Shown: piece by piece, positions 3,638 through 54,783 of the stretch
Position numbering within the stretch: the stretch's first letter is position 1
How the letters are laid out: every line of letters begins with the position of its first letter
Assembly: GCA_965230295.1 (NCBI GenBank)
Contig: OZ246001.1
Location: forward strand, 3,008,001 to 3,072,000
Source of the DNA: Marinicella sp.
GTDB taxonomy: Bacteria; Pseudomonadota; Gammaproteobacteria; Xanthomonadales; Marinicellaceae
DNA length: 64,000 bases
Direction of reading: 5' to 3'
Notes under the pieces: generated by a model
What the model saw: the letters and a program-made list of their open reading frames with translations, nothing else
Told to the model about the DNA's origin: nothing
The model's database searches: none
Position numbers and translations under genes: made by a program

Positions 3638-3665
3638 ATCAGTAAAAAGTAAGGTATAAATCAGT
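3638..3665 (+). promoter_or_regulatory. 11-bp-period direct-repeat box upstream of GT4 gene
   Basis: ATCAGT 3638, GTAAGG 3649, ATCAGT 3660. Confidence 0.65.
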
Positions 3666-3733
3666 AATAGAACAGTTAAAAAAATCCAATTATTGATTTA
3701 ATTGATCCTATTGTTTTATATATAGATTATCTG

Positions 3734-5065
3734 ATGAAAAAGTTAAAAATACTGGTTGATGGGTTCAACTTACAATTATCAAAAGGTACCGGAATCAAGA
3801 CTTATGGTTCTACATTATTGGATGCATATCAAAAAATGGGTTGTGAAATTGGCATACTTACTGACAAGGTAATCCCAAAAAGCAGAAAGGTTGTTCTTGA
3901 TGAAATCAATTTTTTTGACAATCAACCGATTCGAAAGAACAAAATTCAAATATTTAATGAATTTATTAATAGCGCCAGAAATATTGCGGGTATAGGGACA
4001 AGTCTTTATATCAAGCCCCAGTTTACAGAAATCAATAAAAAAAACTACTTATCGAAAAAAAGAGGTAAGTACAATCATATTGAAAACATCCCCAACATCT
4101 TCAGTGATGCCTATAAAGCATTCAAAATCTTTGGCACCTTTCCTAATATTAATGCATCAGAACAACCAGATGTTCTTCATCTTACAGCGCCTTGGCCAAT
4201 TAGGATGTCAAAAGCAAAAACTGTACTGACCATACATGATTTGATTCCTTTAAAACTCCCATTTACAACTTTAGATGATAAGTCCTATTTTTATAATTTA
4301 GTAAAAAAGTCTATCAACAATGCTGACGTAATTTTATCAGTTTCAAATTTTACCAAGAATTGCATTATAGATACTTTTGATGTTGATGATGAAAAAATAC
4401 ATGTAACATATCAAAGTATCGACACGAGCAGTTCTTTTAAAAAGTCCAAAAAATCAATGAAAAAATTTCTTAAATCAGTACAGCTGGAGCAGGAAAATTA
4501 TGTATTGTTTGTCGGCAATATTGAACCCAAAAAGAACCTGCCAACTCTAGTTAAAGCATTTTCTACTCTAAAACTAAAGTCTAAAGGCATGAAACTTGCG
4601 ATTGTTGGCTCAAAAGCTTGGATGTCTGAAGGTGAATTAGCAGTCTTGACTAAGTACCTCAAACCTGATCAGTATGAAATATTAGAATATGTTTCTGAAT
4701 CTAATCTGATTACTTTGTATAAACATGCGAGTTGCCTAGTCTTCCCATCAATTTATGAAGGATTTGGATTGCCTGTCTTAGAAGCCATGTACTATAAATG
4801 CCCAGTGATTTGTTCTAATGCTTCTTCAATTCCGGAAGTTGCTGGGGGAGCTGCTCTATATTTTTCCCCTTTAAATGAGCAGGATTTGAGGAAGAAAATG
4901 CAAGACCTAATTAATAATCCTTATAAGAGGTATGAGTTGATTCAAAAAGGGATCAATCAAGCTGAAAAATTCAGTCCTAGTAATTATGCAGAAAGATTAA
5001 TGACTGCATACGGAAGCTTGCATTTTTCTAATGCATCATTGTCAAGAAAGTATTTTTTGTGGTAG
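3734..5065 (+). CDS. GT4 family (GT-B) glycosyltransferase
   Basis: TIHDLIP, VGNIEPKKN, FPSIYEGFGLPVLEAM motifs. Confidence 0.92.
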   Translation: MKKLKILVDGFNLQLSKGTGIKTYGSTLLDAYQKMGCEIGILTDKVIPKSRKVVLDEINFFDNQPIRKNKIQIFNEFINSARNIAGIGTSLYIKPQFTEINKKNYLSKKRGKYNHIENIPNIFSDAYKAFKIFGTFPNINASEQPDVLHLTAPWPIRMSKAKTVLTIHDLIPLKLPFTTLDDKSYFYNLVKKSINNADVILSVSNFTKNCIIDTFDVDDEKIHVTYQSIDTSSSFKKSKKSMKKFLKSVQLEQENYVLFVGNIEPKKNLPTLVKAFSTLKLKSKGMKLAIVGSKAWMSEGELAVLTKYLKPDQYEILEYVSESNLITLYKHASCLVFPSIYEGFGLPVLEAMYYKCPVICSNASSIPEVAGGAALYFSPLNEQDLRKKMQDLINNPYKRYELIQKGINQAEKFSPSNYAERLMTAYGSLHFSNASLSRKYFLW

Positions 5066-5736
5066 GGAGAGGTCAGTGCAATGAACCCAATAGATGTGTT
5101 TGAATTTTAAGTTTATAGCTTGTTTTTATCAATAAAATTAATATGTTATCAGATTTTGATTAAATCTAAAGTACTTCAGACTAACGGCTTCTTCCTAAAA
5201 AGTACATTGAAACAACCTATAGCATAATTATTAATTTTCTTTAATTAATGTTGAATATGAATATCAACAGTTATTCGTTAGCATGAAATAGAATTAATAC
5301 ATGCTTTCTAAAAAATAATTAGCTAGACGATATTTGCAACTAGATTTAATGGTTACTTTTTAATTCAAATTTCGTTAAATATTCTCTTTCATTACCCTTT
5401 TTAGTAGTTCATTTTCCCGCTTGAACACAAACCATAAATTGAAACCTCTTAATTTTGAAAAACTGATGGTCAGTTAGATCAGCCGCACTGGGTTGGCGGA
5501 GCTATGCTGAGTCAGAGAGTTTATGCCCAAGGTGGTGAGTCATGTTGACAGTGATCGTATTCTATTCATTATTGTCTGGAACAAAAATGAATGAAGATCC
5601 AAGAATATTCCTTTAATATAATGTCTCAGCTTAAATTTCTAAATATGTTCTGCGATGATTAATATATTCAATATAATATACCTATTAAATGGTTAAATTA
5701 TCAGTAGAATATAAACTTATTTAAATATATTTTATT

Positions 5737-5850
5737 ATAAAAAAGCAGACCACAACTGTTTAGAAAGGGGGAAAAACATGTGTTGTGATCTGCTTAAATG
5801 GGCTTAACATTGATTCGAGGTGAGTTTAAATTAATGTAAGCTCGATTCAA
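5737..5850 (-). ncRNA. Candidate sRNA A (two hairpins, UUCCCCC loop, intrinsic terminator)
   Basis: Minus strand: hairpin TTGAATCGAG..CTCGAATCAA, then AAGCAGATCACAAC..TGTTT-TTCCCCCTTTCT-AAACA..GTTGTGGTCTGCTT-TTTT. No ORF; lies directly downstream of a 4-unit repeat box. Confidence 0.6.
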
Positions 5851-5875
5851 TTATTGAATTTATTGGAAATTTTAA

Positions 5876-5914
5876 CCTGATCTTTGACTGATTTTTACTT
5901 AATTAAAACCTGAC
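5876..5914 (-). promoter_or_regulatory. 11-bp-period box (4 units) driving candidate sRNA A
   Basis: + strand CCTGAT 5876, ACTGAT 5887, CTTAAT 5898, CCTGAC 5909. Confidence 0.7.
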
Positions 5915-5928
5915 TAGATATACGACTG

Positions 5929-7755: not shown

Positions 7756-7817
7756 AGTCACACTCCATACACACGTTAATTAAGAGTCTCTATGTTAGGC
7801 CTAAACCAAAAGAAAAA

Positions 7818-7845
7818 CTTGACTATAGCCTGATCAATGTCTGAT
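7818..7845 (-). promoter_or_regulatory. 11-bp-period box
   Basis: CTTGAC 7818, CCTGAT 7829, TCTGAT 7840; TAACAT -10 lies 20 nt downstream (7792-7797). Confidence 0.7.
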
Positions 7846-7980
7846 TTCTGAAACTAAAAATAACATAAAAAGAGAGTTGCTATTCATCCATGTGGTTGTG
7901 ATTAAATGAATAATTTATTTATATTTCATGATTGTGAAATTCGCCGATTATGCTCGTTGAGACGTTTGGAACATAAGTGG

Positions 7981-9522: not shown

Positions 9523-9576
9523 ATTTTTTCTCCAAATTAATTAGTGAAAAATATATTCTATGCAGTGTTATATTGT

Positions 9577-9593
9577 CCTGAGCAATTTCTGAG
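9577..9593 (-). promoter_or_regulatory. 11-bp-period box (2 units)
   Basis: CCTGAG 9577, TCTGAG 9588. Confidence 0.5.
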
Positions 9594-10070
9594 TTTTCAC
9601 TTGTTTTTTCCTTACGTTTAATAGAATTGAGTCATTACGGTTATTGATTGTTTATTTATTAAACAAACAAAAAAATGACGACACGACCCAAAAATTATGT
9701 TCTGATCAATATGCTGTTAATCACTATTTTCCAATTGACATACTTTTGCACTTAGTGAGTTTGAATTAATAATATTAGTCTTGACTTCAAGTATTTTTTG
9801 GCTATTTGCCCAGAATTGCATGCTCGAAATTTATAGTACCTGATACGGCAATGATCGAATCAACCCCATAATTTATTCACATTACTTACTGAATTATGAG
9901 AAAAAAGTACTTACTAAAACTGATTCTGTACTTGAATTTTCTTTTAACAATTAAACTTAATATAGGCTGAATGAGAGCTGCTTAGGAATGCGAAGCGCAT
10001 CTAAATTTTGAGAATGTGTACTTTTGACATACTACCAATCTTTAAAGGTTATGATACAATTTAATTGTGT

Positions 10071-10104: not shown

Positions 10105-10106
10105 GG

Positions 10107-12401
10107 ATGCAAACTTCTCAAGTTAATATAATTAATACTCCTTTTAAAGTTGGTGATTTTATAGTCAACCCTTCCTTAAGGACTATTACTAACAATAAAA
10201 AAGAAGTAGAAACCGTTCAGCCGAAGGTTATGGAACTGTTGTGCTTTTTAGCCAGTCATCAAGGCGAAGTTGTTAAAAGGGACACCATATTTGACTATGT
10301 ATGGAAAGATACTTATGTCAGTGAAGATGCGATGCACAGAACGGTATCATTGGTACGAGTGGCGCTGAATGACAATCCAAAGAAACCTGAGTACATAGTT
10401 ACAATTCCCAAAGCAGGGTATCAACTGATTGCCCCAGTTGAAATTGAAGGGAAGGAAACTGCACAACAAGATGATATTCATTATAAAAGGGCGTTTCTGG
10501 TTTTATTACCAGCATTTGTACTGTTATGGTTTTTGGTTCAATATTACACCCAACCCTCATATGCAGAAGACACAAGGGTCAGTTTTATTCCAATTAATTT
10601 GACTAAAAATGTTACATCTGAAAATTCAGATGAGTGGTTGTTTGAAGCAGGCCTTGTTTATTTAACTGAAATGATTGGGAAAAACAGCGATATCAATGCC
10701 AGAGCCCCGGTTCGTGAGTGGCGTCACAGTGAAAACAGTTCAAATTTGGCTATCAGCTTAATCGATAATGATAAAGCAGATTTGGTTGTTTTGGCAGATG
10801 TTGGAAAAGAAGAAGAGTTTTTTATATCTACGGTGCAAATCAGAGGAAGTAACGGAATTGTTGGCGAGCATCAATTCAAATCAAACTCAATCAACAGATT
10901 GATGGGTGACATCAATAACTGGGTAGGAGAGAGAGTCAGTGAGGATCAAATAGTGGTTGGCAACGATTTGATTGAGGAACAATTCCCCGAGCTCAGTGAT
11001 GATGATTATGCGGTAGAAAGTTTTTTAAGAGGGCTGTCAGCACAGCTACAAGGAGACGCAGGAAAAGCCATCAATTTTTTTGAGACGTCCATAGAACAAG
11101 ATCCTGATTTTCAATTGGCATGGTATCAGTTATCATTGGCAGAGAGGTTACAAGGTAATTATCAGAGGTCGATGGGAATATTAAATTCTCTAGAGAATTT
11201 GAAGAATGGTACATTTACTCATAGAGTTGCCAATGCAAAGGGAAATCTACTTTGGAGAACTGGAGAATATGATAAAGCTTTGGCTTCTCACGAAGTAGCG
11301 TTAACACATGCAAAAGAAGCAAAAAATCTTGATCATATAAGAAAATCTCTAGCAAACATAGCTTTGGTGAATTTAGAGTTGGGTGATACTCAAGCAGCAA
11401 GAAAAGCGCTTGATGAAGTGTTAACAATATTTAATGAAGAAAAACACGTAAAGATTCTGGGATATACTTACAATACATATGCTCGTTTGGAATATGAGGA
11501 ATATAATATAGCCGAAGCCATCGAAATGTCAAAAAAGGCCATAAATGCATTCTCATTGGAAGGAAATAGACGGGCGGAAACGAATGCAAGAGCCAGGCTT
11601 GGTGGTTATTTAATAGATATGAATCAATTTTCTGAAGCGGAAACCATTGTAACTGAAACGCTTTTTTTCAGAGAAGAATCTGATGACCGGTCTGGAATGA
11701 TTTCAAGTTATAATAAATTAGGCAAAATCTCTTTGGCTACAGGAAAGTTTGATGACGCTGAAAAACATTATATGAAAGTAACTTCACTCAGCAAGGCTTT
11801 GAAAGATAAAAATGATGAAGCTGAAAGCTACCTGAATTTAAGTCGTGTGTTTCTGATTAGCCAAGATTTACAGAAAGCCAGACTATACATTCAATTATTT
11901 AAAGATAATTCAGGTTCTGATGATGTGTCAAACATATATGCCAAAATACTTGATTTGCGTCTTGCAATTGGTGAAAAGAACTTTGAAAGCGCCCAAAAGA
12001 TTGTTGATGAGTTTGATGAACAAGATTTTCACTTGTACTACCTTTACAGTGGTGATTTTTATTATGAAACAGAAGACTATGAGTCCGCAGAGATTCAATA
12101 TCGAAAATTTCTAAATGAAATGCAGGCTAGAGGTAGAAATATTGAAATTGTTACAGGGTTTAACAGGTTGACGAGGATGTATTTGAAAACTGATATGAAA
12201 AAAGCGGCCTCAATCATAGACCAAACAAAATCATTGAATCCATTTTCATATCCTTACCTTAAATACAAGGCCATGGTAGCAAAAGAGAACAACATAGTTG
12301 ATGCTCAATCTTTGCTAAACGAACTTAAGTTATCGTCCAATGATTTTTGGTCGCCAGATGATCAAATTCTTCTGGAGCAGTACACAAAACTAATGGATTA
12401 A
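10107..12401 (+). CDS. CadC/ToxR-like membrane transcriptional regulator: OmpR/PhoB-type wHTH + TM helix + periplasmic TPR sensor
   Basis: QPKVMELLCFLASHQGEVV..VW..VSEDAMHRTVSLVRVALND..YIVTIPKAGYQL, then TM FLVLLPAFVLLWFLV, then long TPR array. Confidence 0.9.
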   Translation: MQTSQVNIINTPFKVGDFIVNPSLRTITNNKKEVETVQPKVMELLCFLASHQGEVVKRDTIFDYVWKDTYVSEDAMHRTVSLVRVALNDNPKKPEYIVTIPKAGYQLIAPVEIEGKETAQQDDIHYKRAFLVLLPAFVLLWFLVQYYTQPSYAEDTRVSFIPINLTKNVTSENSDEWLFEAGLVYLTEMIGKNSDINARAPVREWRHSENSSNLAISLIDNDKADLVVLADVGKEEEFFISTVQIRGSNGIVGEHQFKSNSINRLMGDINNWVGERVSEDQIVVGNDLIEEQFPELSDDDYAVESFLRGLSAQLQGDAGKAINFFETSIEQDPDFQLAWYQLSLAERLQGNYQRSMGILNSLENLKNGTFTHRVANAKGNLLWRTGEYDKALASHEVALTHAKEAKNLDHIRKSLANIALVNLELGDTQAARKALDEVLTIFNEEKHVKILGYTYNTYARLEYEEYNIAEAIEMSKKAINAFSLEGNRRAETNARARLGGYLIDMNQFSEAETIVTETLFFREESDDRSGMISSYNKLGKISLATGKFDDAEKHYMKVTSLSKALKDKNDEAESYLNLSRVFLISQDLQKARLYIQLFKDNSGSDDVSNIYAKILDLRLAIGEKNFESAQKIVDEFDEQDFHLYYLYSGDFYYETEDYESAEIQYRKFLNEMQARGRNIEIVTGFNRLTRMYLKTDMKKAASIIDQTKSLNPFSYPYLKYKAMVAKENNIVDAQSLLNELKLSSNDFWSPDDQILLEQYTKLMD

Positions 12402-12616
12402 CAGGCTCTTTTACCAAAAAGACTGAAACTTGATTCTGTTTGTTTGCGTGTTGTCGCAGTAAGGATATGGTTATTGAACTGATTTCACTCCAAATGCACC
12501 CCAGGTACAACTATTCTCAAATCACCTCTTCAGGCAGTGCTCCAAATCTCTTTCAACTGATCAGAATCTTACTTTTGCGGAATTAATTAATGTTTCAAAT
12601 TTCAGGTTTGATCAAT

Positions 12617-12644
12617 ATCAGATAATAATCAGGACTTAGTAAGG
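12617..12644 (+). promoter_or_regulatory. 11-bp-period box
   Basis: ATCAGA 12617, ATCAGG 12628, GTAAGG 12639; TAATCT -10 at 12665-12670. Confidence 0.75.
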
Positions 12645-12680
12645 TGTTGTTCTGGTTGAGGTCGTAATCTATCAACTTTC

Positions 12681-16708: not shown

Positions 16709-16736
16709 CCTGATTAAAGTCAACGTTTTTCCTGAT
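16709..16736 (-). promoter_or_regulatory. 11-bp-period box
   Basis: CCTGAT 16709 and 16731 (22 bp apart); CATAAT -10 at 16683-16688. Confidence 0.7.
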
Positions 16737-16849
16737 TTCTGTGAACATGTCTATAAAATCAGTGGAGAAAGTCAATGTCAAACTAAAGAGGTTTTTGATT
16801 CATTTTGTTTAAATGAGAAGTTGTTCCCCCATGTCTGTATGCTTTATGA

Positions 16850-18614: not shown

Positions 18615-18768
18615 ATGCCTTTTCCAGGATTGCAGTTACTTACTGAAATGGTTTGTTTACTAAACCTGAATTCTGTATTGACTAATGAAAAGTGATGTAT
18701 GCATCCATAACAAAAGTATTCTATACAAAATTTGATTGATTTAATTTTCTTAAACAAATCAGAAAATT

Positions 18769-18807
18769 CCTGATGAAAATCGACTTATTTTCTGATATTA
18801 ATCTGAT
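18769..18807 (-). promoter_or_regulatory. 11-bp-period box
   Basis: CCTGAT 18769, TCTGAT 18791, TCTGAT 18802. Confidence 0.65.
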
Positions 18808-19398
18808 TGACGTTAAAAGCTAATGGGCCGGTAGCCGAAAAATTTAAGAGATGATTTAGGAGATGCATTTTGGGATGTTATTCTGAACCATTGCGACGGT
18901 GAATACCTTAAACTAAGGAATAGTCAGGAATCTAAAATCAATTATTCAGCAACTCAAGATGTCAATTTACATTATTTGAATTTTCATAAATTAAGATTTG
19001 ATGTTCATCCAATCGGATAGTCAATATCTTGAAGTGAATGATCAAGAAAGCTACATTCTATTCATTCAAAAAAACACACCCAACAAAAAATATCATTAAA
19101 TGATCTCTTAATTATCAAAATCCTCGTTCATATTCAGCTTCTAGCCAATTATTTAGGACAAGTTCTGATGTCTTTTCAAAAAAACTCAAATTATGGGTCC
19201 AGAAAATTAACAAGTACAATTCAATGTAATAGCTAAACCGATTGAAATCGGTAAACCTTCAAAATCTCTAGTGGCAGAAGCCAACACATGATCAGATGAC
19301 CTAACAGCTTAATGTTAGTTGATTCGATGTTTTTTTCAATTCAGAAACTTGTTTCAAGCACACATGATCTGAATTCTGTATTTTTCAGCTTTGGCAAC

Positions 19399-19426
19399 AT
19401 CAGATAATAATCAGGAGTTCATAAGG
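19399..19426 (+). promoter_or_regulatory. 11-bp-period box
   Basis: ATCAGA 19399, ATCAGG 19410, ATAAGG 19421; TATTAT -10 at 19447-19452. Confidence 0.75.
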
Positions 19427-19586
19427 TCTTATTCTAGTTGGGGCGGTATTATTTCATTCGATGAAAACATGATTCTTGTTCGAAAATTGAACCAAACCAC
19501 ATGGTTATCATCGGTGCTGTCAGAACTGGAAGTAAATAGTTTTTTTCGACTTAAAGAATTTGGTGAAATGTATACGGGGAAATTCA

Positions 19587-36687: not shown

Positions 36688-36695
36688 TTAATTAT

Positions 36696-37365: not shown

Positions 37366-37450
37366 AATATACTCCAAAAAATAAGACAAGATTCGTCCAT
37401 ACGTTGATGGACGTGTTGGGTTTTAGGATACGAACTAAGAAAGTGGTTTA

Positions 37451-37499
37451 CCTTAACAAAACCTACTTTTTTCTGATTTTTTGTTGATCAATGGCTGAA
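37451..37499 (-). promoter_or_regulatory. 11-bp-period box
   Basis: CCTTAA 37451, TCTGAT 37472, GTTGAT 37483, GCTGAA 37494; TATCCT at 37425-37430. Confidence 0.6.
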
Positions 37500-39448: not shown

Positions 39449-39502
39449 GGCTTTACCTTCTGTATTAATGGACTTAATTATGGAATCAGTCACAAAAATA
39501 AA

Positions 39503-39530
39503 ACTGATTGAACCCTTATTTTTTGCTGAT
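39503..39530 (-). promoter_or_regulatory. 11-bp-period box
   Basis: ACTGAT 39503, CCTTAT 39514, GCTGAT 39525; CATAAT 39477-39482. Confidence 0.75.
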
Positions 39531-39547
39531 TTTTTATTGGGTGTGGT

Positions 39548-40942: not shown

Positions 40943-40997
40943 GGAATTCTACCTCTGAATTAAGAGATTTAATTATGGAACCAGTCACAAAAGAATT

Positions 40998-41025
40998 ACT
41001 GATCGAATCCTTATGTTTGACTGAT
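40998..41025 (-). promoter_or_regulatory. 11-bp-period box
   Basis: ACTGAT 40998, CCTTAT 41009, ACTGAT 41020; CATAAT 40972-40977. Confidence 0.75.
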
Positions 41026-41027
41026 TT

Positions 41028-42572
41028 TTATTCAAAACCATTGGCGAATATGGGCGGATAGATGATCTGAATGTATTTGTCAAACGTGTTATCCGCAGGA
41101 AAATCTTCGCTGGCTGATAGCAGCACAGCACTGCCTGAAATATTGAGGTATTCTCCATCACCGATCAACGCATCAAAATTCACCGTGTAGGTCACAGCTG
41201 TATTAGGGGGTATTGATGGAATGGTATCTAGAACGGACCCGGATGTTCCGCCACATGAAGAACCGCCATGATCACAAGTCCAAGATATATTGGTTGCTGC
41301 ATTCATGTCTAGATCAACCATAACCTCAACGTCATTTAAGACCAGAATGCTATTGTTTTTCACTAGTATCGTTACCTGTGGATTATCACCATCAATGACT
41401 TGGTTTGACACTTCAATTGAAACATCATGATAAATACATTCAACACCTCCATCTGTGATGATCCAATTCTTACCATTGATTAAAGTGTCTTTACTTGGAC
41501 CTCCAGAGCAATAAGGTGTTGTTCCGGCACTGAAGGTTACGTTCTCCATAACGGTTTGGCCAGCAAAGTTATCCAGCATATCATCATAATGCCGGGTTGA
41601 TAATCCGGAATTGTCGAACATTTGGTCCATATCAGTTACTGATGATACATCCCAATTGCTCAAATCGGGGTTAGCATTAGCAGCAGCATTAAACATGTAT
41701 CTCATGTTATTTACAGATGACACATTCCAATTGCTCACATCAGGATTGGCAACATTTGTGCCGTTAAACATAAAGCCCATATTGGCTACAGATGACACAT
41801 CCCAATTACTCACATTTGGATTGGCAACATTAGCGGTATTAAACATGGAACTCATATTAGTAACAGATGACACATCCCAATTACTCACATCAGGATTGGC
41901 AAGAAAAGCTGCAGCAAACATGCTGCCCATACTGATAACAGATGATACATCCCAATTACTCACATCTGGATTGGCAAGAAAAGCTGCAGCAAACATGCTA
42001 TCCATATTGGTAACAGATGACACATCCCAATTACTCACATCTGGATCGGCAAAATCAGCACCGCTAAACATGCTTCTCATATTAGTTACAGATGACACAT
42101 CCCACCTGCTTACATCGAGGTTATTGATTGCACTGTTAGCAAACATATATGACATATCAGTGACTTGAGATAGATCCGGCACATCTGTGGCAATAAAATC
42201 TGTGTTTACCCCACTAAAGGCGCCATTCATTGACTTCCATTCAATAGCGCCCCATTGATTTACGCTGGTCAACTGTTCGTTTTGAGCGGCGGCTGAATCA
42301 ATAAGGTATGTGTTGGGGTAATCGCCAATGATTCTGATGGTGTGTGTGCCTGCACTTGGAAATGTATGCTGAAAAGGTCCTGTTATTCCAGTGAAGTCAT
42401 ACACGCCATCATCATCAATATCCACGTCATAATTGTATTGACCTGAATAGTTTGGATCTATGGGTAAATCGATGGTTGGGTATGAAGTTGTATCCCACGT
42501 GGTGATGAATTCAGCTTGTGCTGAAGACATCATCCATACAGAAAACATCAGGGATAGGATGGTATATTTCAT
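41028..42572 (-). CDS. DUF285/BspA-like surface repeat protein
   Basis: Repeats as above; tail PPIFANGFE. Confidence 0.9.
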   Translation of the reverse strand: MKYTILSLMFSVWMMSSAQAEFITTWDTTSYPTIDLPIDPNYSGQYNYDVDIDDDGVYDFTGITGPFQHTFPSAGTHTIRIIGDYPNTYLIDSAAAQNEQLTSVNQWGAIEWKSMNGAFSGVNTDFIATDVPDLSQVTDMSYMFANSAINNLDVSRWDVSSVTNMRSMFSGADFADPDVSNWDVSSVTNMDSMFAAAFLANPDVSNWDVSSVISMGSMFAAAFLANPDVSNWDVSSVTNMSSMFNTANVANPNVSNWDVSSVANMGFMFNGTNVANPDVSNWNVSSVNNMRYMFNAAANANPDLSNWDVSSVTDMDQMFDNSGLSTRHYDDMLDNFAGQTVMENVTFSAGTTPYCSGGPSKDTLINGKNWIITDGGVECIYHDVSIEVSNQVIDGDNPQVTILVKNNSILVLNDVEVMVDLDMNAATNISWTCDHGGSSCGGTSGSVLDTIPSIPPNTAVTYTVNFDALIGDGEYLNISGSAVLLSASEDFPADNTFDKYIQIIYPPIFANGFE

Positions 42573-42624
42573 GGCTTTACCTTCTGTATTAATAGATAAT
42601 TATGGAATCAGTCACAAAAGAATT

Positions 42625-42652
42625 ACTGACCGAATCCTTATGTTTGACTGAT
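42625..42652 (-). promoter_or_regulatory. 11-bp-period box
   Basis: ACTGAC 42625, CCTTAT 42636, ACTGAT 42647; CATAAT 42599-42604. Confidence 0.75.
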
Positions 42653-42654
42653 TT

Positions 42655-44136
42655 TTATTCAAAACCATTGGCGAATATGGGCGGATAGATGATCTGAATG
42701 TTCTTGTCAAACACGTTATCCGCAGGAAAATCTTCGCTGGCTGATAGCAGCACAGCACTGCCTGAAATATTGAGGTATTCTCCATCACTGATCAACGCAT
42801 CAAAATTCACCGTGTAGGTCACAGCTGTATTAGGGGGTATTGATATGGTTTCTAGAACGGACCCGGATGTTCCGCCACATGAAGAACCGCCATGATCACA
42901 AGTCCAAGATATATTGGTTGCTGCATTCATGTCTAGATCAACCATAACCTCAACGTCATTTAAGACCAGAATGCTATTGTTTTTCACCAATATCGTTACC
43001 TGTGGATTATCACCATCAATGACTTGGTTTGACACTTCAATTGAAACATCATGATAAATACATTCAACACCTCCATCTGTGATGATCCAATTCTTACCAT
43101 TGATTAAAGCGTCTTTACTTGGACCTCCAGAGCAATAAGGTGTTGTTCCGGCACTGAAGGTTACGTTCTCCATAACGGTTTGGCCAGCAAAGTTATCCAG
43201 CATATCATCATAATGCTGGGTTGATAATCCGGAATTTGTGAACATGTCATCCATATATAAAACATTAGGTATTTGCCAATGCTGTAGATCAGGGTTTGCT
43301 GATGTGGCGCCCTCGAACATTCGTGACATTTCGATCACTGAACTTACATCCCACCGGCTCACATCGGGATTGGCGACACTGGTATCAAAAAACATAGCAG
43401 TCATATTAGTAACAGCTGACACATCCCACCGGCTTACATCGGGATTGGCAGCTGAAGCACCAATAAACAAACCGCCCATATCGGTCACAGCTGACACATC
43501 CCAGCCACGCACATCAAGATTAGCAACATCAGTAGACAGGAACATAGATGCCATATTCATTACAGATGATACATCCCACCTGCTCACATCGATATTGGGA
43601 AATTGAGTATCTCCAAACAGAGATACCATATTGGTAACAGCTGACACATCCCAGTCGCGCACATCAATGGTAGGAATATCACTTGAATAAAACATTTCGT
43701 ACATGCTAGTTACTTGTGACAAGTTCGGCACATCGGGTGCTAAAATTTCTGTTTTAACATAGCTAAATGCATTACTCATTGACTTCCACTCGATATCGCC
43801 CCATTGGTCTATACTTATTAATTGTTCACCTGTATATCTTCTAGCGGATCCTGAAGAACCAAAATTAGGGTTAGGGAAATCCCTGCTGATTTTGAGAGTA
43901 TAAAGGCCTGGATTATCAAAAATGTAAATAAAATCTCCAGTGATTTCAAATTCTTCATACACCAAAAAAAAATTGGCATCTAAAATTTCCACATCATAAT
44001 CGTATGAGAGGTTTGTGGCTGCAATGATGTCTATTTCTAAATCGTTTGATGTGGCCTCCCATGTGGTTATGAAAGGTCGAGCATCCGCAAAAAAAGTCAT
44101 CAGCAATAAACATAGCGTTGGATTTGTCAATCTCAT
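42655..44136 (-). CDS. DUF285/BspA-like surface repeat protein
   Basis: Repeats as above; tail PPIFANGFE. Confidence 0.9.
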   Translation of the reverse strand: MRLTNPTLCLLLMTFFADARPFITTWEATSNDLEIDIIAATNLSYDYDVEILDANFFLVYEEFEITGDFIYIFDNPGLYTLKISRDFPNPNFGSSGSARRYTGEQLISIDQWGDIEWKSMSNAFSYVKTEILAPDVPNLSQVTSMYEMFYSSDIPTIDVRDWDVSAVTNMVSLFGDTQFPNIDVSRWDVSSVMNMASMFLSTDVANLDVRGWDVSAVTDMGGLFIGASAANPDVSRWDVSAVTNMTAMFFDTSVANPDVSRWDVSSVIEMSRMFEGATSANPDLQHWQIPNVLYMDDMFTNSGLSTQHYDDMLDNFAGQTVMENVTFSAGTTPYCSGGPSKDALINGKNWIITDGGVECIYHDVSIEVSNQVIDGDNPQVTILVKNNSILVLNDVEVMVDLDMNAATNISWTCDHGGSSCGGTSGSVLETISIPPNTAVTYTVNFDALISDGEYLNISGSAVLLSASEDFPADNVFDKNIQIIYPPIFANGFE

Positions 44137-44189
44137 TGAATTAACCTGTGGGAAAAAAACTTGATTATGGGTTCGGTCATGAAAAAATA

Positions 44190-44217
44190 ACTGATCGAAT
44201 CCTTATCTTTAGCTGAT
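44190..44217 (-). promoter_or_regulatory. 11-bp-period box
   Basis: ACTGAT 44190, CCTTAT 44201, GCTGAT 44212; CATAAT 44164-44169. Confidence 0.75.
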
Positions 44218-44457
44218 TTATTATTTAGTCATATGGCCAAGTCATATAAATGCCTGAAAGAATATGGTCCGCCTGACTGCCTTGGCATACGATTTCTGCA
44301 ACTGGACTACAAACCCGGGCATAGAAAATCCGTATCAGGGTCTGAATAATATAGCTGACAAAGGTTTTTCAAGAATAGACGTTCCATTCACACAACAATT
44401 CTTAGACCGTTCAAATTTAAAAGCATATTCAAGACTGAGCTTTTCCTTTTCTTTTAT

Positions 44458-47136: not shown

Positions 47137-47190
47137 TGGGATATTCCTAAATTTAGCAATTATTATTTTCTATAGTTCCCTGGATTAATA

Positions 47191-47228
47191 ACTGATCAAA
47201 AACTGATTTAGTGATGATTTTTTCTGAT
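47191..47228 (-). promoter_or_regulatory. 11-bp-period box
   Basis: ACTGAT 47191, ACTGAT 47202, GATGAT 47213, TCTGAT 47223. Confidence 0.7.
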
Positions 47229-47340
47229 TAATTTATCTCTGTAATTTATTCAAAATCACTTTTTTGTATTGATTTGATGTTTGAATGCTTCTATCAAACA
47301 TATTTGTCGAAGGTTTCCCTTTAATTAGATACAGAATTAA

Positions 47341-47368
47341 ATCAGGTAAAAACAAGGGTTTAATCAGG
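47341..47368 (+). promoter_or_regulatory. 11-bp-period box driving candidate sRNA D
   Basis: ATCAGG 47341, ACAAGG 47352, ATCAGG 47363; GATAAT -10 at 47389-47394. Confidence 0.75.
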
Positions 47369-47400
47369 ACATTATCCTGATGTTTCTCGATAATGACCGT

Positions 47401-47540
47401 TAAGGAGCAATGCTTTGGTACACACACTCTCTCTATTGCGTCGCTCTTTATTTGTTCCGCAAGGGTGTCGAGGCTTTTACATTCACCCCCTTATGTACCT
47501 CGTCACTCTTGTGACTCTATCCATACGAGCATTTATTTTT
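47401..47540 (+). ncRNA. Candidate sRNA D (CU-rich first loop, UCACCCCCUU apical loop)
   Basis: GCAAT..ACACACACTCTCTCT-ATTGC; long stem GCAAGGGTG/CACTCTTGT, CGAGG/CCTCG, TACAT/ATGTA with loop TCACCCCCTT; U-rich end. Confidence 0.55.
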
Positions 47541-48879
47541 AGACAAACCCTTATCTTGCTTTGTACCCCAACAGGACATGCCATTACTTTGTTAAAAGAA
47601 TTTTCAAAACCATATACAGGGTGTTGTCATTAGTTGTTAATTATTTCTGTTATTTTCTTCATATCTGGCCATTTGAATTAAAGGGTTCAATTTAATTTTG
47701 TTATTTGTTTTGAATACTGTAAAGGTTGTTAGTAGCCCAGTGAGAAATGGTACTTTTCTACATCGTAGGCTATCACAATGGATTAATTTCTTGGCTGTAT
47801 CAGTTAAGTCTCTTTAACAATGCTGATTCATTACGGCCGTTCTGAATTTGCCATTAAAGCTGTTATTAAATGTGATTTATGTTGGAGTGCCAGGTTGAAT
47901 AAATGGTTATCTAACACTCTGTTATATAACCCTGAAGAACATAGCTTCGTAAGTATATTCAGTCCTGTAGAAAAATTCGATTGTATTTGGGCCTGTTTCT
48001 TGGTATTCAATCTCTAGATCAAGGGAGCGTTCAGCCACAGCGCTATTAATCAATGAGGCCAAAAATTTGCCAAAATAATTGTGGGGGCAAGTGATTAACT
48101 AGACTTAACACTTCGAAGTGCCTTCAACCTGATTCTATATTTGAAATAAAACCTATTGCCTTCCCTTTGATGACTAAGCTCATTGGGTGTTTTCAACTTC
48201 TCTTTTAGTAAAATGTTAACCTGCATCTTTTCCTCCATGTACATGCAGTACATTTACCTTGCATTATCAATCAAGATTTTTATGCATTGCATGCTACAGC
48301 AAATCCGAATGATGCTCTGTTTCATTTTAGGAGAAAATATACTTTGCCATGGTTAAGTTCTTTGGTGGAAAGGACATTCCCTCTTCAAGGAATTTGTTTA
48401 TGGGTAATCTTGGATGTCCTATTAATAAGCATCTTAGAGAGGTTGTTAACCGTTCAGTTAACGATTGCACTAAGTGAACATTGGAATAAAGCTAATTTAG
48501 AATGATTTAATGTGCTGAAGTTAATTTTGAATTAATGACTAGATTAATTTTTTACATAGGTAAAATTTGTCTGATGAATCCTTTTCAAGTAGCTTTTCTG
48601 CAAGTGTATCTAATTGGTTTTTCTGAAAGATTGTTTCTTAACACAACGAAAATAAAGTCCATTATAAATGAAGTTTTTCTAAGCACATTAATGGTATCAA
48701 GACCCTTGAAGTCTTTTTCAATACTTTGGTACCTCAAGGGTCTTACATAGAATCTAAAATTTTCCATTGCTTATTTTGAAAAGTTCTGATTAGATTTTTC
48801 AACATTAAAAATCAAGTTACTTACATTTATTTAGATTAATTGTTAAAAAATAATACAAGATATTTTTTAACAAACAAGC

Positions 48880-50160: not shown

Positions 50161-50212
50161 AATGTTACTACCTAGTAAAAAAAATTATTATGGGTGGTGT
50201 GTGAATAAATAA

Positions 50213-50240
50213 ACTGACTCAAACCTGATTTTTTACTGAT
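50213..50240 (-). promoter_or_regulatory. 11-bp-period box
   Basis: ACTGAC 50213, CCTGAT 50224, ACTGAT 50235; CATAAT 50187-50192. Confidence 0.75.
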
Positions 50241-50255
50241 GATTGATTCAACGTT

Positions 50256-52266: not shown

Positions 52267-52449
52267 TTAAAGAGATTCAAAACATTTGATTTCACTGAGT
52301 AATAGGATTGACCGAAGAGAAGACTCAGAGTCGACAATCACAAAATAATGCATGACATTTTTGAGGGTGCAAATGGCCTGATCACCATTTTTTAAGAAGA
52401 TTCTGATGTTGGCATTGTGTTTAAATTGTTCTAGTAATTGATTTCTCAT
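52267..52449 (-). CDS. Small Hfq/Sm-like fold protein (paralogue 4)
   Basis: 43/60 identical to 30936..31124; IRIFLKNG motif; first gene of a probable operon with the DUF285 gene. Confidence 0.6.
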   Translation of the reverse strand: MRNQLLEQFKHNANIRIFLKNGDQAICTLKNVMHYFVIVDSESSLRSILLLSEIKCFESL

Positions 52450-52509
52450 GGCACACCCTTAATTGGTCGTTAAACTTGAAACCAGTTTAAGATGCATGGT
52501 TTATATTGA

Positions 52510-52537
52510 CCTTACCGAAACCGGATTAATATCTGTT
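52510..52537 (-). promoter_or_regulatory. 11-bp-period box
   Basis: CCTTAC 52510, CCGGAT 52521, TCTGTT 52532; TAAACT -10 at 52484-52489. Confidence 0.7.
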
Positions 52538-52732
52538 TTTATCTTTAAAAACTTGAAAAAAACCTAAAAAAAATAAAAATGACAGTTTTAGACTGGATAT
52601 ATAAAAACCTGGCTAAGTTGTAGCTGACTTAAAGGAAATTTGTTAATCAGTAACAGAGGCTTTATCTAAATTTTGAATGAAAATGGTTACTACATAAATA
52701 ATTAAGAAGTTATTAGGAGGTATGTTTAATAA

Positions 52733-52771
52733 ATCAGGTATTAATTAAGTAAAGGTCAGCAATAGATCAGG
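52733..52771 (+). promoter_or_regulatory. 11-bp-period box
   Basis: ATCAGG 52733, GTCAGC 52755, ATCAGG 52766; AATAAT at 52792-52797. Confidence 0.7.
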
Positions 52772-52845
52772 ATTATGATTTAAATATATTCAATAATTAA
52801 ATTGATGCAATGGATGTGTCTTATTAATTTAGTGAATTACAAATC

Positions 52846-53952
52846 ATGAGTGTGTATATGTTGAAATCATCAAGTCGTATCGAAAAGAAGGTTTTGCCTC
52901 CATATTTTTTAAACCTCCCAGTTTATATGCTGATATATTTTGGTTTATTAACTATCCCTAGATCAGCCTTTCCAGAAACACCTTCTTCTGAATATAAATC
53001 AGATCCAGATTACTCTGTTGTTATAGATGGGATACCTAATCAATACGATGATGTGTTGAACACACCAGAAATAGATAAAGTGGATTTGGAAGCATTGATA
53101 TGGGAACCAGAAGTGGCCGGTATCTATCCGGCAATCATTATGCTACATGGGGCAGGTGGCTTGTATTACCAAAGTGATGACTCATGTGATGATGCTGACA
53201 GGAGTTGTTGGGGGTTATCTGGCAAATTTCGATACTGGGCTCATTTATTAAGTAAAGGTCACCCATACGATTATTCGGATAAATTTATCATCATTGCAGT
53301 TGATTCCCACACCCCACGAGGTTATGACCATCATGGAGTGTCTCAAATAGCCAGTGGATCCAGACCTGCAAATGTCACAGCTCATCTTGGTAGGCCTTGG
53401 GATTTTTATGCAGCACTGAATTATTTAAAGTCACGAGATGATGTGATTCAAAATGAAATTTTTGCTCTGGGGTTTTCTGATGGCGGTGGGGGGGTGTTGA
53501 GTGCAATCGCTGCATCAGATCAAGCCGTTATGGTTAATGAATCTGATTATTTTCATGGAATTGATAACAACTCTGAAGAGGGGCGTGCAGTAATGGCCGA
53601 TGATTCAGTCAGCGGCGCTGTAGTTTTTTATCCAAGTTGTGGTCTTCAAGGTTATTTTAATGGTGCATACACTCATTTTGGACAACTATTGGTCCAAGTT
53701 GGCAGTGATGATGACATCACTGTGCCGTCAAGATGTATTGAACGCCAATCTGAATCCATTGGTTTAGGAATAAGCCCGACTGATTTTGTTATTGATATTT
53801 ACGAAGGGGCTGATCATGGTTTCGATTATTTTGAATCTGAAACTCAAAATGCCTGTATTGCAACAGAAAAGGCTATTTCATTTTTTTCAGCAAAAGTAGG
53901 TGACAGCATTTTTTCATCTCACTTTAACTCTAATGTTTGTGCAGAAAATTAA
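52846..53952 (+). CDS. Dienelactone-hydrolase-family alpha/beta hydrolase, exported
   Basis: PAIIMLHGAGG, nucleophile GFSDGG, VGSDDDIT (Asp), YEGADHGFD (His); tail DSIFSSHFN. Start position uncertain. Confidence 0.85.
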   Translation: MSVYMLKSSSRIEKKVLPPYFLNLPVYMLIYFGLLTIPRSAFPETPSSEYKSDPDYSVVIDGIPNQYDDVLNTPEIDKVDLEALIWEPEVAGIYPAIIMLHGAGGLYYQSDDSCDDADRSCWGLSGKFRYWAHLLSKGHPYDYSDKFIIIAVDSHTPRGYDHHGVSQIASGSRPANVTAHLGRPWDFYAALNYLKSRDDVIQNEIFALGFSDGGGGVLSAIAASDQAVMVNESDYFHGIDNNSEEGRAVMADDSVSGAVVFYPSCGLQGYFNGAYTHFGQLLVQVGSDDDITVPSRCIERQSESIGLGISPTDFVIDIYEGADHGFDYFESETQNACIATEKAISFFSAKVGDSIFSSHFNSNVCAEN

Positions 53953-54166
53953 TCGCCAGCTTTGAAATGATCCGTTTTGTGCTGAGAATTAAGATAGGTT
54001 GAGAGTGAAGTAACCGAGAATGTAAACTAACTTGAGTACGCCTTGGTTGATTATATTTTGAAGACAACGTAACGTGATACATTTATAAATCAAGGGTCAA
54101 CTAAAATCGGGTGTGTGCGCTGAAGGGCTCCCTATCCATTGAAGCCCCAGAAGCTTGCTTATTTGG

Positions 54167-54697
54167 TCATTCCAGTACAGCCAGTAAGTGATCAAACCCT
54201 TTACTGCTGGCGATTTCTGCTGCCGATAAACCCTCGGTGGTTTTAATGGAAGCATCTGCGCCATGGTCAACCAGGCTTCTGGCAACCTCTGCATGGTTAT
54301 AAAATACGGCGTACATCAAAGCAGTCCACCCATCTGATGTCGTTATATTCATATCAGCACTCATGTCGATCAACAACTTGGCTGTATCGTGATGGCCATT
54401 CGAAGCGGCAAAATGCAAAGCTGTCCAATCGCTGCTGTCGATTTTGTCGATTTCCGCACCATGCATTAGCAACATTGAAACAGTGTCAGTATGACCTGCC
54501 CCGGCAGCATATGACAACAAAGAAACATTTTCCTTTTCAGACACCGTGTTTACATCAGCACCATCGATGATGGCTTTTTCTAAAAATTCAGTTTTGCCAT
54601 TATAAGCGGCACTGATCAGCTGTTTGTCAGTGGTTCCCCCACAAGCTTGAAGGATGATTAAAGTAAAGCATACAATGCTTAAATATATAAATTTCAT
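54167..54697 (-). CDS. Ankyrin-repeat lipoprotein
   Basis: Lipobox ILQAC; TALHFAASNGH, TALMYAVFYNH repeats. Confidence 0.9.
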   Translation of the reverse strand: MKFIYLSIVCFTLIILQACGGTTDKQLISAAYNGKTEFLEKAIIDGADVNTVSEKENVSLLSYAAGAGHTDTVSMLLMHGAEIDKIDSSDWTALHFAASNGHHDTAKLLIDMSADMNITTSDGWTALMYAVFYNHAEVARSLVDHGADASIKTTEGLSAAEIASSKGFDHLLAVLE

Positions 54698-54755
54698 TTG
54701 ATTCTCTCCTGTAACTATTTACAGCTGCCAGCTTAATACAGAGCTATGGTATTAC

Positions 54756-54783
54756 CCTGACTTAAACCTGATGAATTCCTGAT
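54756..54783 (-). promoter_or_regulatory. 11-bp-period box (near-perfect)
   Basis: CCTGAC 54756, CCTGAT 54767, CCTGAT 54778; TAAGCT -10 at 54730-54735. Confidence 0.8.

Follow-up and report, generated by a model that had tools for sequence, protein, structure and literature searches.

What joins the genes of a long AT-rich stretch of Marinicella DNA in which nearly every transcription unit carries the same upstream element, and which protein would read that element? We examined these questions in a window of 64,000 nucleotides (the whole stretch of DNA that was analysed). The reading that we favour, and consider likely, is that the segment from 3.6 to 54.8 kb is an AT-rich gene island wired as one regulon and activated by a wHTH protein. 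Its surface proteins would probably be induced jointly with four tiny proteins of Hfq shape and some likely small RNAs. None of the island genes that were searched for in relatives had a close orthologue, and the island therefore appears strain-specific.

A shared array at the island promoters

Between positions 3633 and 54788, an array was present in 30 of the 31 promoter regions, as delimited by us (Table 1). This agrees with the sequence-only reading, which had claimed a shared element at nearly every unit over ~51 kb. Each array consists of 2-4 head-to-tail units with the core (A)AATCAG(G), repeated at an exact 11-bp period and pointing toward the gene. These AAATCAGG arrays are the shared promoter element and a putative wHTH target. 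Four of the 30 are weak (9576, 31185, 37450) or variant (16710, with 22-nt spacing). The sole exception is the regulator gene at 10107, which has no array upstream (PWM -4.4). Genes 13874 and 20623 have no array of their own; they lie 28 and 55 nt behind upstream genes.

The pattern RTCAG-N6-RTCAG occurred 18 times in the window, compared to a mean of 0.52 (sd 0.69, maximum 3) in 100 dinucleotide shuffles. The 18 matches comprised 15 distinct intergenic arrays and one match (54615) within the ankyrin ORF. The genome total was 91, for which 1.45 matches would be expected in the window by length. At periods of 10, 12, 13 and 14, the window held 1/76, 2/96, 0/87 and 0/71 of the genome matches, respectively. 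A composite model (three units at 11 bp plus a -10 hexamer, threshold score at least 20) gave 48 hits in the genome, 30 of them in the window, where they represent 26 separate arrays by our count; a Markov-1 control matched to the window's composition gave 0.16 hits per 64 kb. Thus the element withstood the comparison with shuffled AT-rich DNA that had been named as its check. We take the regulon to be real. Elsewhere in the genome there are about ten more such promoters, and outside the window (PWM at least 16) the element had the same orientation as the gene in 13 cases and the reverse in five. By the 70 nt downstream of the array, the 30 promoters can be sorted into 23 groups that share no detectable similarity; hence the sharing does not come from gene duplication.

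Table 1. Arrays and other features of the window (window coordinates; scores of arrays are from the composite model).
Feature	Position	Strand	Details
Array, GT4 gene 3734-5065	3633..3666	+	27.7
Hairpin unit 1	5735..5835	-	long terminator-like hairpin, C5 loop, T6 tail; MFE -22.0
Array, hairpin unit 1 (ORF-less)	5875..5908	-	26.3; -10-like hexamer at 21 nt
Array, Big_13/DUF11 tailed protein 5989-7761	7817..7850	-	28.0
Weak array (CTCAG cores), FG-GAP protein 8023-9522	9576..9609	-	17.9; PWM 16.0
Candidate island regulator	10107..12401	+	N-terminal wHTH, one hydrophobic segment after DBD, TPR region (Pfam)
Array, tailed 333-aa protein 12788-13789	12612..12645	+	32.2; long, conserved leader (leader alignment)
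Variant array, FG-GAP 14943-16577 (+13874-14914 TIGR03032/DUF4915)	16710..16741	-	two perfect cores 22 nt apart; -10-like hexamer at 21 nt
Array, FG-GAP protein 17022-18614	18768..18801	-	20.9
Array, tailed 335-aa protein 19560-20567 + TPR-sulfotransferase 20623-22812	19394..19427	+	33.7; Pfam
Array, CarboxypepD_reg repeat protein 23429-25363	23343..23376	+	28.7
Array, 1309-aa repeat protein 25914-29843	25828..25861	+	28.7
Array, hemerythrin-HHE protein 30102-30572	30610..30643	-	25.3; Pfam
Sm-like ORF 1 (62 aa)	30936..31124	-	AF2 pLDDT 85.8; Foldseek top hits all Hfq, TM 0.77
Weak array, Sm-like ORF 1	31185..31218	-	19.6
Array, degraded FG-GAP remnant (about 31339-31450)	31676..31709	-	24.7; remnant from repeat family D5/D9 copy at 31339-31450
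Array, hemerythrin/Rsd-like protein 32114-32620	31945..31978	+	35.3; Pfam
Hairpin unit 2	33197..33300	-	two hairpins, 3' one with C5 loop and U-rich tail; MFE -27.4; directly precedes ORF 32699-33196
Array, hairpin unit 2 + ORF 32699-33196	33328..33361	-	28.6
Sm-like ORF 3 (70 aa)	34020..34232	-	alignable with the other three
Array, Sm-like ORF 3	34288..34321	-	21.4; cores 22 nt apart
Array, Sm-like ORF 4	34359..34392	+	26.9
Sm-like ORF 4 (61 aa from second ATG)	34445..34630	+	AF2 pLDDT 83.2
Second array ahead of EAL gene	34718-34751	+	18.9
Array, EAL gene 34848-35531	34761..34794	+	29.5; EAL Pfam; in-frame TGA in gene
Hairpin unit 3	36515..36632	-	5' CU-rich loop; 3' C6 loop and U-rich tail; MFE -33.3
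Array, hairpin unit 3	36659..36692	-	28.5
Weak array, small proteins 37111-37389, 36696-37103	37450..37483	-	17.4
Array, DUF285 protein 37808-39493	39502..39535	-	29.7; Pfam DUF285
Array, DUF285 protein 39548-40942	40997..41030	-	25.5
Array, DUF285 protein 41028-42572	42624..42657	-	23.9
Array, DUF285 protein 42655-44136	44189..44222	-	28.3
Array, HpiC1-like/DUF285 protein 44458-47136	47190..47223	-	29.1; Pfam
Array, hairpin unit 4	47336..47369	+	30.8
Hairpin unit 4	47400..47550	+	hairpins with CU-rich and C5 loops; MFE -43.7
Array, PKD/DUF285 protein 48880-50160	50212..50245	-	33.0
Sm-like ORF 2 (60 aa)	52267..52449	-	72% identical to ORF 1
Array, Sm-like ORF 2 + DUF285 protein 50256-52217	52509..52542	-	21.0
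Array, dienelactone-hydrolase-like protein 52846-53952	52728..52772	+	23.4 and 23.2
Array (three perfect units), ankyrin lipoprotein 54167-54697	54755..54788	-	38.6; right edge of regulon
FNR/Dnr-type box upstream of nirS	58212..58225	+	others at 60511, 60559, 63635

Promoter geometry and proposed mode of action

A -10-like hexamer starts 21 nt past the end of the proximal core. For 29 window anchors set without use of the -10, the score from an approximate -10 matrix peaked at this offset (at least 3 in 10/29 anchors; mean -0.63 vs about -4.5 elsewhere). Another 6/29 anchors formed a smaller peak at offset 32; in promoters with a degenerate proximal unit (TAAGG-like), 32 nt separate the end of the last perfect core from the -10. 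The array mostly starts 72-94 nt ahead of the start codon. A normal -35 element is absent from these promoters, and array units occupy its place. Judged by sequence, a spacing of 21 nt corresponds to the geometry of a class-II activator. The period, orientation and position are all as expected for an activator of the OmpR/PhoB/ToxR class, which supports the earlier assignment of the element as a wHTH-type direct repeat. Equally, a repressor could make use of an array that overlaps the -35 region.

In the mechanism that we propose, a winged-helix activator of the OmpR/PhoB/ToxR class would bind the units head to tail, oligomerising along one face of the helix, and, once bound, would recruit sigma-70 RNA polymerase in a class-II, Pho-box-like manner. 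An envelope or external signal would reach a membrane-anchored one-component reader, which would turn the island on directly.

Candidate readers of the arrays

The reader is most likely a one-component protein of the membrane-anchored, N-terminal-wHTH (ToxR/CadC/HilA-like) family, and there are two candidates for it: the island protein 10107 and its paralogue G000:1436200. In Pfam, 10107 matched Trans_reg_C (1.2e-15) and TPR_12 (2.3e-25), and had no receiver domain. G000:1436200 (Trans_reg_C + PD40) is a conserved, off-island membrane wHTH protein with a TolB-like propeller. At 10/10 of its orthologue loci, among them a genome from a different genus within the same family and a genome from a different family, the divergent promoter carried an array of 2-4 units with the 11-bp period; in G000 itself the -10-like hexamer lies at the identical 21 nt. 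This conserved operator supports a ToxR/OmpR-class reader. The recognition helices of the two proteins differ at many positions.

It is possible, though doubtful, that the resident G000:1436200 reads the arrays, with esterase operons as its core regulon and 10107 doing something else; the island promoters would then have been captured by it or have evolved toward it. Besides the shared core, period and 21-nt geometry at its own promoter, a second site of the conserved type lies at 3694366, ahead of another esterase, and the two sets have similar unit flanks (AA ahead of the core, G/C behind it). However, an orthologue was found in only 7/23 other genomes of the genus, the island spacers are AT-rich but those of the conserved operator CCAGAA-like, and the island has its own regulator of the same class. 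Moreover, genome G015 has arrays of the same geometry, one with four units, yet no G000:1436200 homologue at E<=1e-20. Against the DNA-binding domain of 10107, its best match reached 38% identity; since these arrays occur without a close homologue of either regulator, a third reader is possible. The closest full-length relative of 10107 (genome G004, 33% identity) had no array within 1.5 kb.

Returning to activation by a wHTH protein, we also considered the opposite sign of control, namely that the arrays are repressor or silencer operators at which a wHTH protein bound over the -35 region would hold the AT-rich island silent, to be released by a signal. AT-rich foreign islands are commonly silenced; H-NS is mentioned in PMC7232297. 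The proximal unit, moreover, does overlap the -35 position. Nevertheless, we regard this as improbable: no -35 hexamers are recognisable, and a generic sigma-70 scan gave 58 promoter-like sites vs 81.9 in shuffles, i.e. fewer, both of which fit activator dependence. Head-to-tail arrays at a fixed -10 distance are the pattern of Pho-box activation.

That the element is an inherited promoter of duplicated genes or an AT-rich chance product, with no common regulator, is highly improbable and already contradicted by the controls: there are many paralogues (DUF285 x8, FG-GAP x4, several pairs) and near-identical promoters (e.g. 23343 and 25828, and four DUF285 promoters), but the unrelated promoter contexts, the composition control, the lack of enrichment at other periods and the element's presence before unrelated genes elsewhere in this genome and in others all stand against it.

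Comparison with known systems

Activation by a wHTH protein has parallels in several described systems. ToxR of Vibrio cholerae is, like the candidate readers, a one-component activator anchored in the membrane, with an N-terminal wHTH of OmpR type; its direct repeats also lie just upstream of the -35, and its targets are envelope and surface genes. The ToxR box is the direct repeat TNAAA-N5-TNAAT at -51 to -37 of ompU (PMC7496328). The island differs in its period of 11 bp (5+6) rather than 10, its ATCAG core, its arrays of 2-4 units and its about 30 targets in one island; the candidate sensors carry TPR or a TolB-like propeller, not the ToxR/ToxS periplasmic module.

HilA is described in PMC7232297 as an OmpR/ToxR-family master activator of the promoters of Salmonella pathogenicity island 1. 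As in 10107, TPR-like repeats come after an island-encoded OmpR/ToxR-family DBD. The HilA box, around -54 to -37, is made of directly repeated hexamers with a 5-nt spacer and would thus share the 11-bp period of the island. However, 10107 carries a hydrophobic segment behind its DBD, and HilA is cytoplasmic. The 10107 DBD scored 49 bits (2.7e-13) with the NCBIfam HilA/EilA model, far under the cut-off of 589, and the island cargo consists of secreted repeat proteins, Sm-like proteins and hairpin units, with no T3SS.

CadC of E. coli, a transmembrane one-component receptor (PMC5430869), shares that design with the candidate readers. It was the best NCBIfam match of both DBDs (6.7e-25 for 10107 and 2.9e-17), but at 88 and 63 bits vs a cut-off of 400, and the sensor domains differ. 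CadC controls one operon through quasi-palindromic sites.

The Pho box has head-to-tail units with an 11-bp period in place of the -35, as do the island arrays. The proximal island core, however, lies about one helical turn further from the -10, and the candidate readers lack the receiver domain of PhoB. The genome has a PhoB-like gene with its own TGTCAT-N5-TGTCAT box; given the ATCAG core, the island element was ruled out as a Pho box.

Output of the island

The island encodes about 16 signal-peptide proteins (DUF285/PARCEL, FG-GAP, CarboxypepD_reg, Big_13 and a 333-aa family), a GT4 glycosyltransferase, a TPR-sulfotransferase, two hemerythrin-HHE proteins, a broken EAL gene, a hydrolase and an ankyrin lipoprotein. 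The remaining output is four mini-proteins of predicted Sm fold and four ORF-less hairpin units.

For both types of small ORF, the predicted fold is that of an Hfq-like Sm domain (pLDDT 83-86, TM 0.77-0.83). They share with Hfq a predicted one helix and five strands, and the top Foldseek matches were all Hfq; for ORF 4 the first was the M. jannaschii Hfq-like 5dy9_C (E 4.6e-4), with other Hfq chains to TM 0.83. The Sm half of the earlier designation of four Hfq/Sm-like ORFs is thus upheld at the level of predicted fold. Membership of Hfq by sequence is not: ORF 2 matched Pfam Hfq at E 0.059 and 13.4 bits, under the cut-off of 27. The YKH-type Sm2 motif, a feature of Hfq, is not visible in the island sequences. 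The ORF 1 family is very rare, with three further small homologues among 1.84e9 representatives. A canonical hfq is present elsewhere in the genome (1836363-1836548), so the island proteins would be additional Sm proteins.

From their sequences, the four C-loop hairpin units are plausible candidate sRNAs. Comparison of the C-rich loops with island mRNAs gave no sign of targeting.

The IFxxGFE tail, which had been tied to the regulon, was found in 76 ORFs genome-wide, and only 3/62 tagged genes outside the window had the element (PWM at least 16). Tag and regulon are therefore separable, and the IFxxGF tail is a C-terminal signal that occurs across the whole genome rather than in this region in particular. 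The denitrification genes had been cited as a contrast, lacking the element and using FNR boxes instead, and this holds: their PWM scores ranged from -4.8 to 4.1, and 4/5 of the TTGAY-N4-RTCAA boxes in the window are at these genes.

Direct repeats with an 11-bp period upstream of the island genes

By reading the intergenic DNA of the window, a unit with the core ATCAG or GTCAG was found to be repeated head-to-tail every 11 bp. When the shuffle control proposed with the sequence-only reading was run, the motif stood clearly above background: RTCAG-N6-RTCAG occurred 18 times in the window, compared with a mean of 0.52 and a maximum of 3 in 100 dinucleotide shuffles. Genome-wide there were 91 matches, so that 1.45 would be expected in the window by length. 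For the control periods of 10, 12, 13 and 14 the window held 1 of 76, 2 of 96, 0 of 87 and 0 of 71 genome matches, respectively. The excess at period 11 over the other periods, concentrated as it is in the window, shows that the enrichment is specific to phase and place. The 18 matches represent 15 intergenic arrays and one match within the ankyrin ORF.

From 3.6 to 54.8 kb, 31 promoter regions were marked out by eye, and an array was present in 30 of them (four of these being weak or having cores 22 nt apart), which bears out the earlier claim that nearly every transcription unit of the island has the same upstream element. The sole promoter region lacking an array was that of the regulator gene 10107 (PWM score −4.4). 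A tandem duplication was seen directly before the start codon of this gene. The 30 promoters fell into 23 groups, between which the 70 nt that follow the array showed no similarity; duplication of paralogues therefore explains only a minority of the element sharing. An alternative sigma-factor promoter was considered but rejected, as three to four phased identical units are unlike a −35/−10 pair.

The spacing to the −10 region was examined with 29 window anchors; within a phased pair the final perfect core served as anchor, and −10 information played no part in the choice. The mean −10 score was −0.63 at an offset of 21 nt, where 10 of the 29 anchors scored at least 3, as against about −4.5 at most offsets. 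There was another peak at offset 32 (6 of 29 anchors), which came from arrays with a degenerate, TAAGG-like proximal unit. A composite model, in which a −10 hexamer was placed 21 nt beyond the proximal core of three units, gave 48 genome matches at a score of at least 20; 30 of these, counted as 26 distinct arrays, were in the window, compared with 0.16 per 64 kb in a Markov-1 control of window composition. Generic scans of 30–49 kb were uninformative, with 58 promoter-like sites where shuffles had 81.9 and, for terminator-like sites, 13 where shuffles had 10.7.

The array mostly starts 72–94 nt before the start codon. In three cases the distance is 164–174 nt, and these promoters, which belong to the two 333-aa paralogues and a hemerythrin/Rsd-like gene, have a long conserved leader in common. 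Its invariant blocks, GAAAACATG and CATG, could form a hairpin, and the leader may be a cis-regulatory RNA.

Outside the window, strong sites were found with a PWM trained on 15 window sites (and circular inside the window), including a small cluster at 2.680–2.689 Mb. The outside sites precede genes for signal-peptide proteins, among them, in those scanned, a DUF285 protein and a beta-helix protein. At PWM scores of at least 16, 13 outside sites were oriented along the downstream gene and 5 in reverse. One promoter occurs twice, about 1.05 Mb apart, each time with the same three-unit array and followed by its tailed beta-helix gene.

Features of the island and related sites (window coordinates, or positions on contig C1 of the genome studied where marked C1)
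Feature	Coordinates	Remark
Regulator candidate 10107	10107–12401	
Tandem duplication before 10107	10064–10103	~17 bp
Sm-like ORF 1	30936–31124 (−)	
Sm-like ORF 2	52267–52449 (−)	
Sm-like ORF 3	34020–34232 (−)	
Sm-like ORF 4	34445–34630 (+)	
Hairpin unit 1	5735–5835 (−)	
Hairpin unit 2	33197–33300 (−)	adjoins ORF 32699–33196
Hairpin unit 3	36515–36632 (−)	
Hairpin unit 4	47400–47550 (+)	
Common long leader	12646–12787; 19428–19586; 31979–32113	
DUF285/PARCEL proteins, 8		one with two HpiC1-like domains, one with a PKD domain
FG-GAP proteins, 3 and a remnant	31339–31450 (remnant)	array at 31676–31709 still upstream of remnant
CarboxypepD_reg repeat proteins, 2		
Unnamed 333-aa family, 2 members		
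Big_13/DUF11 protein, 1		
GT4, TPR-sulfotransferase, TIGR03032/DUF4915, one each		
Hemerythrin-HHE proteins, 2	32114–32620; 30102–30572	
EAL gene	34848–35531	in-frame TGA at 35307–35309
Dienelactone-hydrolase-like protein, ankyrin lipoprotein, some small proteins		
Tail, window examples	13769–13789; 14943–14963; 48880–48900	
Transposase ORF	33742–34011	HTH_Tnp_1, 89 aa, E 1.1e-11
Left flank	3–3168	end of CHAT-domain protein, small ORF, S8 subtilase; all without element
FNR-type boxes	58212; 60511; 60559; 63635	upstream of denitrification genes
Conserved regulator–operator locus	C1 1433192–1438320	contains regulator 1436200 and operator 1436098
Second conserved-type site	C1 3694366	before another esterase
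Strong PWM sites outside window	C1 1629130; 2683826; 3699322/333; 3851881; 1236625	
Promoter with identical array and beta-helix gene, two copies	C1 1629100–1630682; 2683800–2685382	
Canonical hfq	C1 1836363–1836548	

The adjacent denitrification genes

The genes rightward from 54937 (dnr-like, nirS, TonB-dependent receptor and norCB) lack the ATCAG element. Five TTGAT-N4-ATCAA-type boxes occurred in the window, compared with a mean of 1.09 in shuffles, and four of the five were upstream of denitrification genes. These genes therefore carry the box that marks members of an FNR/Dnr regulon, and their proposed use as an internal control was upheld.

Candidate regulators and a conserved operator

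The N-terminal wHTH domain of 10107 matched Trans_reg_C (PF00486) at residues 37–107 with an E-value of 1.2e-15 (57.8 bits, cut-off 26.2). Trans_reg_C and TPR were the Pfam domains listed for this protein, with no receiver domain among them, and a hydrophobic stretch of about 20 residues was read by eye in the translation after the DNA-binding domain (DBD). As a ToxR-like regulator, 10107 would bind direct repeats near −35 and activate transcription; on the DNA side, the arrays lie at a fixed distance of 21 nt from the −10. Against NCBIfam, 10107 scored 87.9 bits with CadC (cut-off 400) and 49.2 bits with HilA/EilA (cut-off 589), only the DBD being matched, so that it belongs to neither equivalog.

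The second candidate, at genome position 1436200, is a membrane wHTH regulator (Trans_reg_C plus PD40/TolB-like). For the DBDs of both candidates the best matches were the CadC and HilA/EilA models, far below their cut-offs. Orthologues of 1436200 were first noticed during a pattern scan of relatives, and were found in 9 of 40 other genomes (7 of the genus, one of another genus of the family and one of another family). At the locus in the genome studied and at the nine in relatives (L015–L023), the regulator is divergent from an operon for an esterase (PF00756) and a beta-lactamase-PD40 protein. In all 10 loci the divergent promoter holds 2–4 units with an 11-bp period that point to the esterase operon, and in the genome studied the distance to a −10-like hexamer is again 21 nt. 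This phylogenetic footprint ties the ATCAG arrays to the membrane wHTH regulator family and makes 1436200 a second candidate reader beside 10107. The conserved regulator–operator pair offers a testable DNA-recognition code. A CAATTGTAAC-like box is also conserved beside the start of the 1436200-type regulator in most of the 10 loci.

Either of the two, 10107 or 1436200, may read the island arrays. Their recognition helices differ. 10107 shares 33% identity with its best relative, and no arrays were found within 1.5 kb of its paralogues in relatives. Arrays of this geometry also occur in one relative (G015), where the DBD of 10107 has a best match of 38% identity and no homologue of 1436200 was found at E ≤ 1e-20. 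The genome studied contains 23 Trans_reg_C matches.

The regulon logic of the island arrays is like that of the Pho box. The island units have the core ATCAG and not the TGTCA core of Pho-regulon units, and the PhoB-like gene is preceded by its own TGTCAT-N5-TGTCAT box.

Hairpin units

Four array-driven units had no real-looking ORF of at least 60 aa. In each, an array with a −10-like hexamer stands at one end and a hairpin with a U-rich tail at the other. In the predicted folds a 5′ hairpin with a pyrimidine-rich loop is accompanied by a 3′ hairpin with a C5–C6 run in its large loop; the four ORF-less units with C-rich loops described earlier were thus recovered. From their sequence they are candidate sRNAs, although unit 2 may instead be the leader of the ORF that it adjoins. 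Rfam gave no matches in the window, which has no tRNA genes either, and a blastn search for further copies returned only the units themselves.

Duplex energies of the loops were calculated against positions −45 to +21 of all called genes. For none of the loops did the top 50 include an island gene (0.41 expected), and nothing among the called genes points to targets of the C-rich loops inside the island. The best predicted partners were G-rich Shine-Dalgarno regions outside the island, which is weak evidence.

Sm-like small proteins

The four Sm-like ORFs align only weakly with each other. The best of them reached 13.4 bits with Pfam Hfq (PF17209; gathering cut-off 27) at an E-value of 0.059, or 0.69 in a genome search. 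AlphaFold2 models of one member per subtype, each from a four-row alignment, had pLDDT values of 85.8 and 83.2 and showed one helix and five strands. In Foldseek searches of the PDB, the top matches of both were all Hfq or Hfq-like: ORF 1 matched 4nl3_A best (TM 0.77, E 4.1e-3), while ORF 4 matched 5dy9_C best (E 4.6e-4) and further Hfq chains at TM values of up to 0.83. The models thus predict an Sm/Hfq fold, with a helix and a five-stranded bent sheet superposable on Hfq. Of the claim that these are Hfq-like paralogues, the fold stood as a prediction and membership of the Hfq family by sequence did not.

An exhaustive profile search of 1.84e9 representatives gave 13 proteins at E ≤ 0.001. 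Three were further small proteins (61–73 aa) and clearly alike, most of the rest being long matches in several stretches. The three alike proteins show the Sm-like ORFs to be genuine members of a very rare family. A word-based protein search returned only the query and a paralogue, and a protein atlas search only unnamed small-protein clusters. The same genome has a canonical hfq gene.

The C-terminal tail

The tail, (D)(L/V)IFxxGF(E/D)-COOH, ends 76 ORFs genome-wide. In the called proteome [ILVM]F..[GSN]F occurred 234 times, and in 73 cases it fell within the final 9 residues. Judged by a crude pattern for signal peptides, 51 of the 72 proteins with the tag looked exported, compared with 718 of 2750 others. 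The closest homologues of the 333-aa protein from other sources end in the same tail; in more distant ones it is replaced by a hydrophobic (TM) helix and an RRRKK-type sorting domain. The tail looks like a sorting or secretion signal, and no Pfam or NCBIfam model covered it.

The sequence-only reading had linked the tail to the regulon. This link was not borne out: only 3 of 62 tagged genes outside the window have the element (PWM score at least 16), so the tail is a separate, genome-wide feature, from which the regulon is now set apart.

Relation to known regulons

We know of no described operator for wHTH-TPR or wHTH-propeller regulators; the literature searches behind this statement covered ToxR-like regulators and HilA. 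For a class of membrane one-component wHTH regulators that is greatly expanded in the genus, the island thus supplies a defined operator, geometry and set of targets. With about 30 promoters of one architecture in 51 kb, beside an FNR-type regulon as internal control, the regulon is unusually clean and readable from sequence alone.

In its logic the island regulon resembles those of ToxR, with direct repeats at −51 to −37 (PMC7496328), of HilA on SPI-1 (PMC7232297) and of CadC (PMC5430869). The unusual parts of the cargo are the orphan proteins of predicted Sm fold and the candidate sRNAs; being under the same switch, these would, if functional, form an island-borne RNA-chaperone layer. It seems rather unlikely that the whole is a self-contained two-layer module. 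In such a module a ToxR-like envelope sensor would control adhesin-like surface proteins and a private post-transcriptional layer, made up of the four orphan mini-proteins of Sm fold, in two subtypes, and of four sRNAs whose C-rich terminator loops would base-pair with G-rich ribosome-binding sites at other loci of the genome, and acquisition of the island would also reprogramme host translation.

Island setting and cargo

The genome is a single contig of 4.008 Mb with 44% G+C; the window (C1 3008001–3072000) is mostly at 29–43% between 2 and 54 kb. Co-occurrence of the components in relatives had been proposed as a check: a search of 40 relatives gave no Sm-like ORF 1, and no island-like array cluster was present among the matches listed. 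Genomes of the genus had 6–22 matches to AATCAG-N6-RTCAG, compared with 3–14 for the period-10 control, a modest excess only (20 against 7 in G002 and 11 against 3 in G005). The sole relative of the 333-aa protein in the genome contigs searched (L052, 36% identity) has no array. For the S8 subtilase of the left flank, 23 genomes of the genus gave no orthologue at E ≤ 1e-40; as it also lacks the element, the apparently strain-specific region is wider than the regulon.

The lone transposase ORF is flanked by hairpin unit 2 and Sm-like ORF 3. The FG-GAP remnant has no intact ORF, and its DNA shares 71% identity with the repeat DNA in the intact genes.

Rsd/AlgQ is a regulator of sigma-70. The two hemerythrin-HHE proteins resemble it; one of them is at 34.0 bits (Pfam cut-off 35) and also matches the NCBIfam 'sigma D regulator' model at 1e-7. 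A possible anti-sigma-70-like activity of these proteins would be of interest in a regulon that depends on an activator. In the EAL gene, the single in-frame TGA is positioned after DDFGT and the frame is open through the rest of the domain; the gene is either a pseudogene or subject to read-through.
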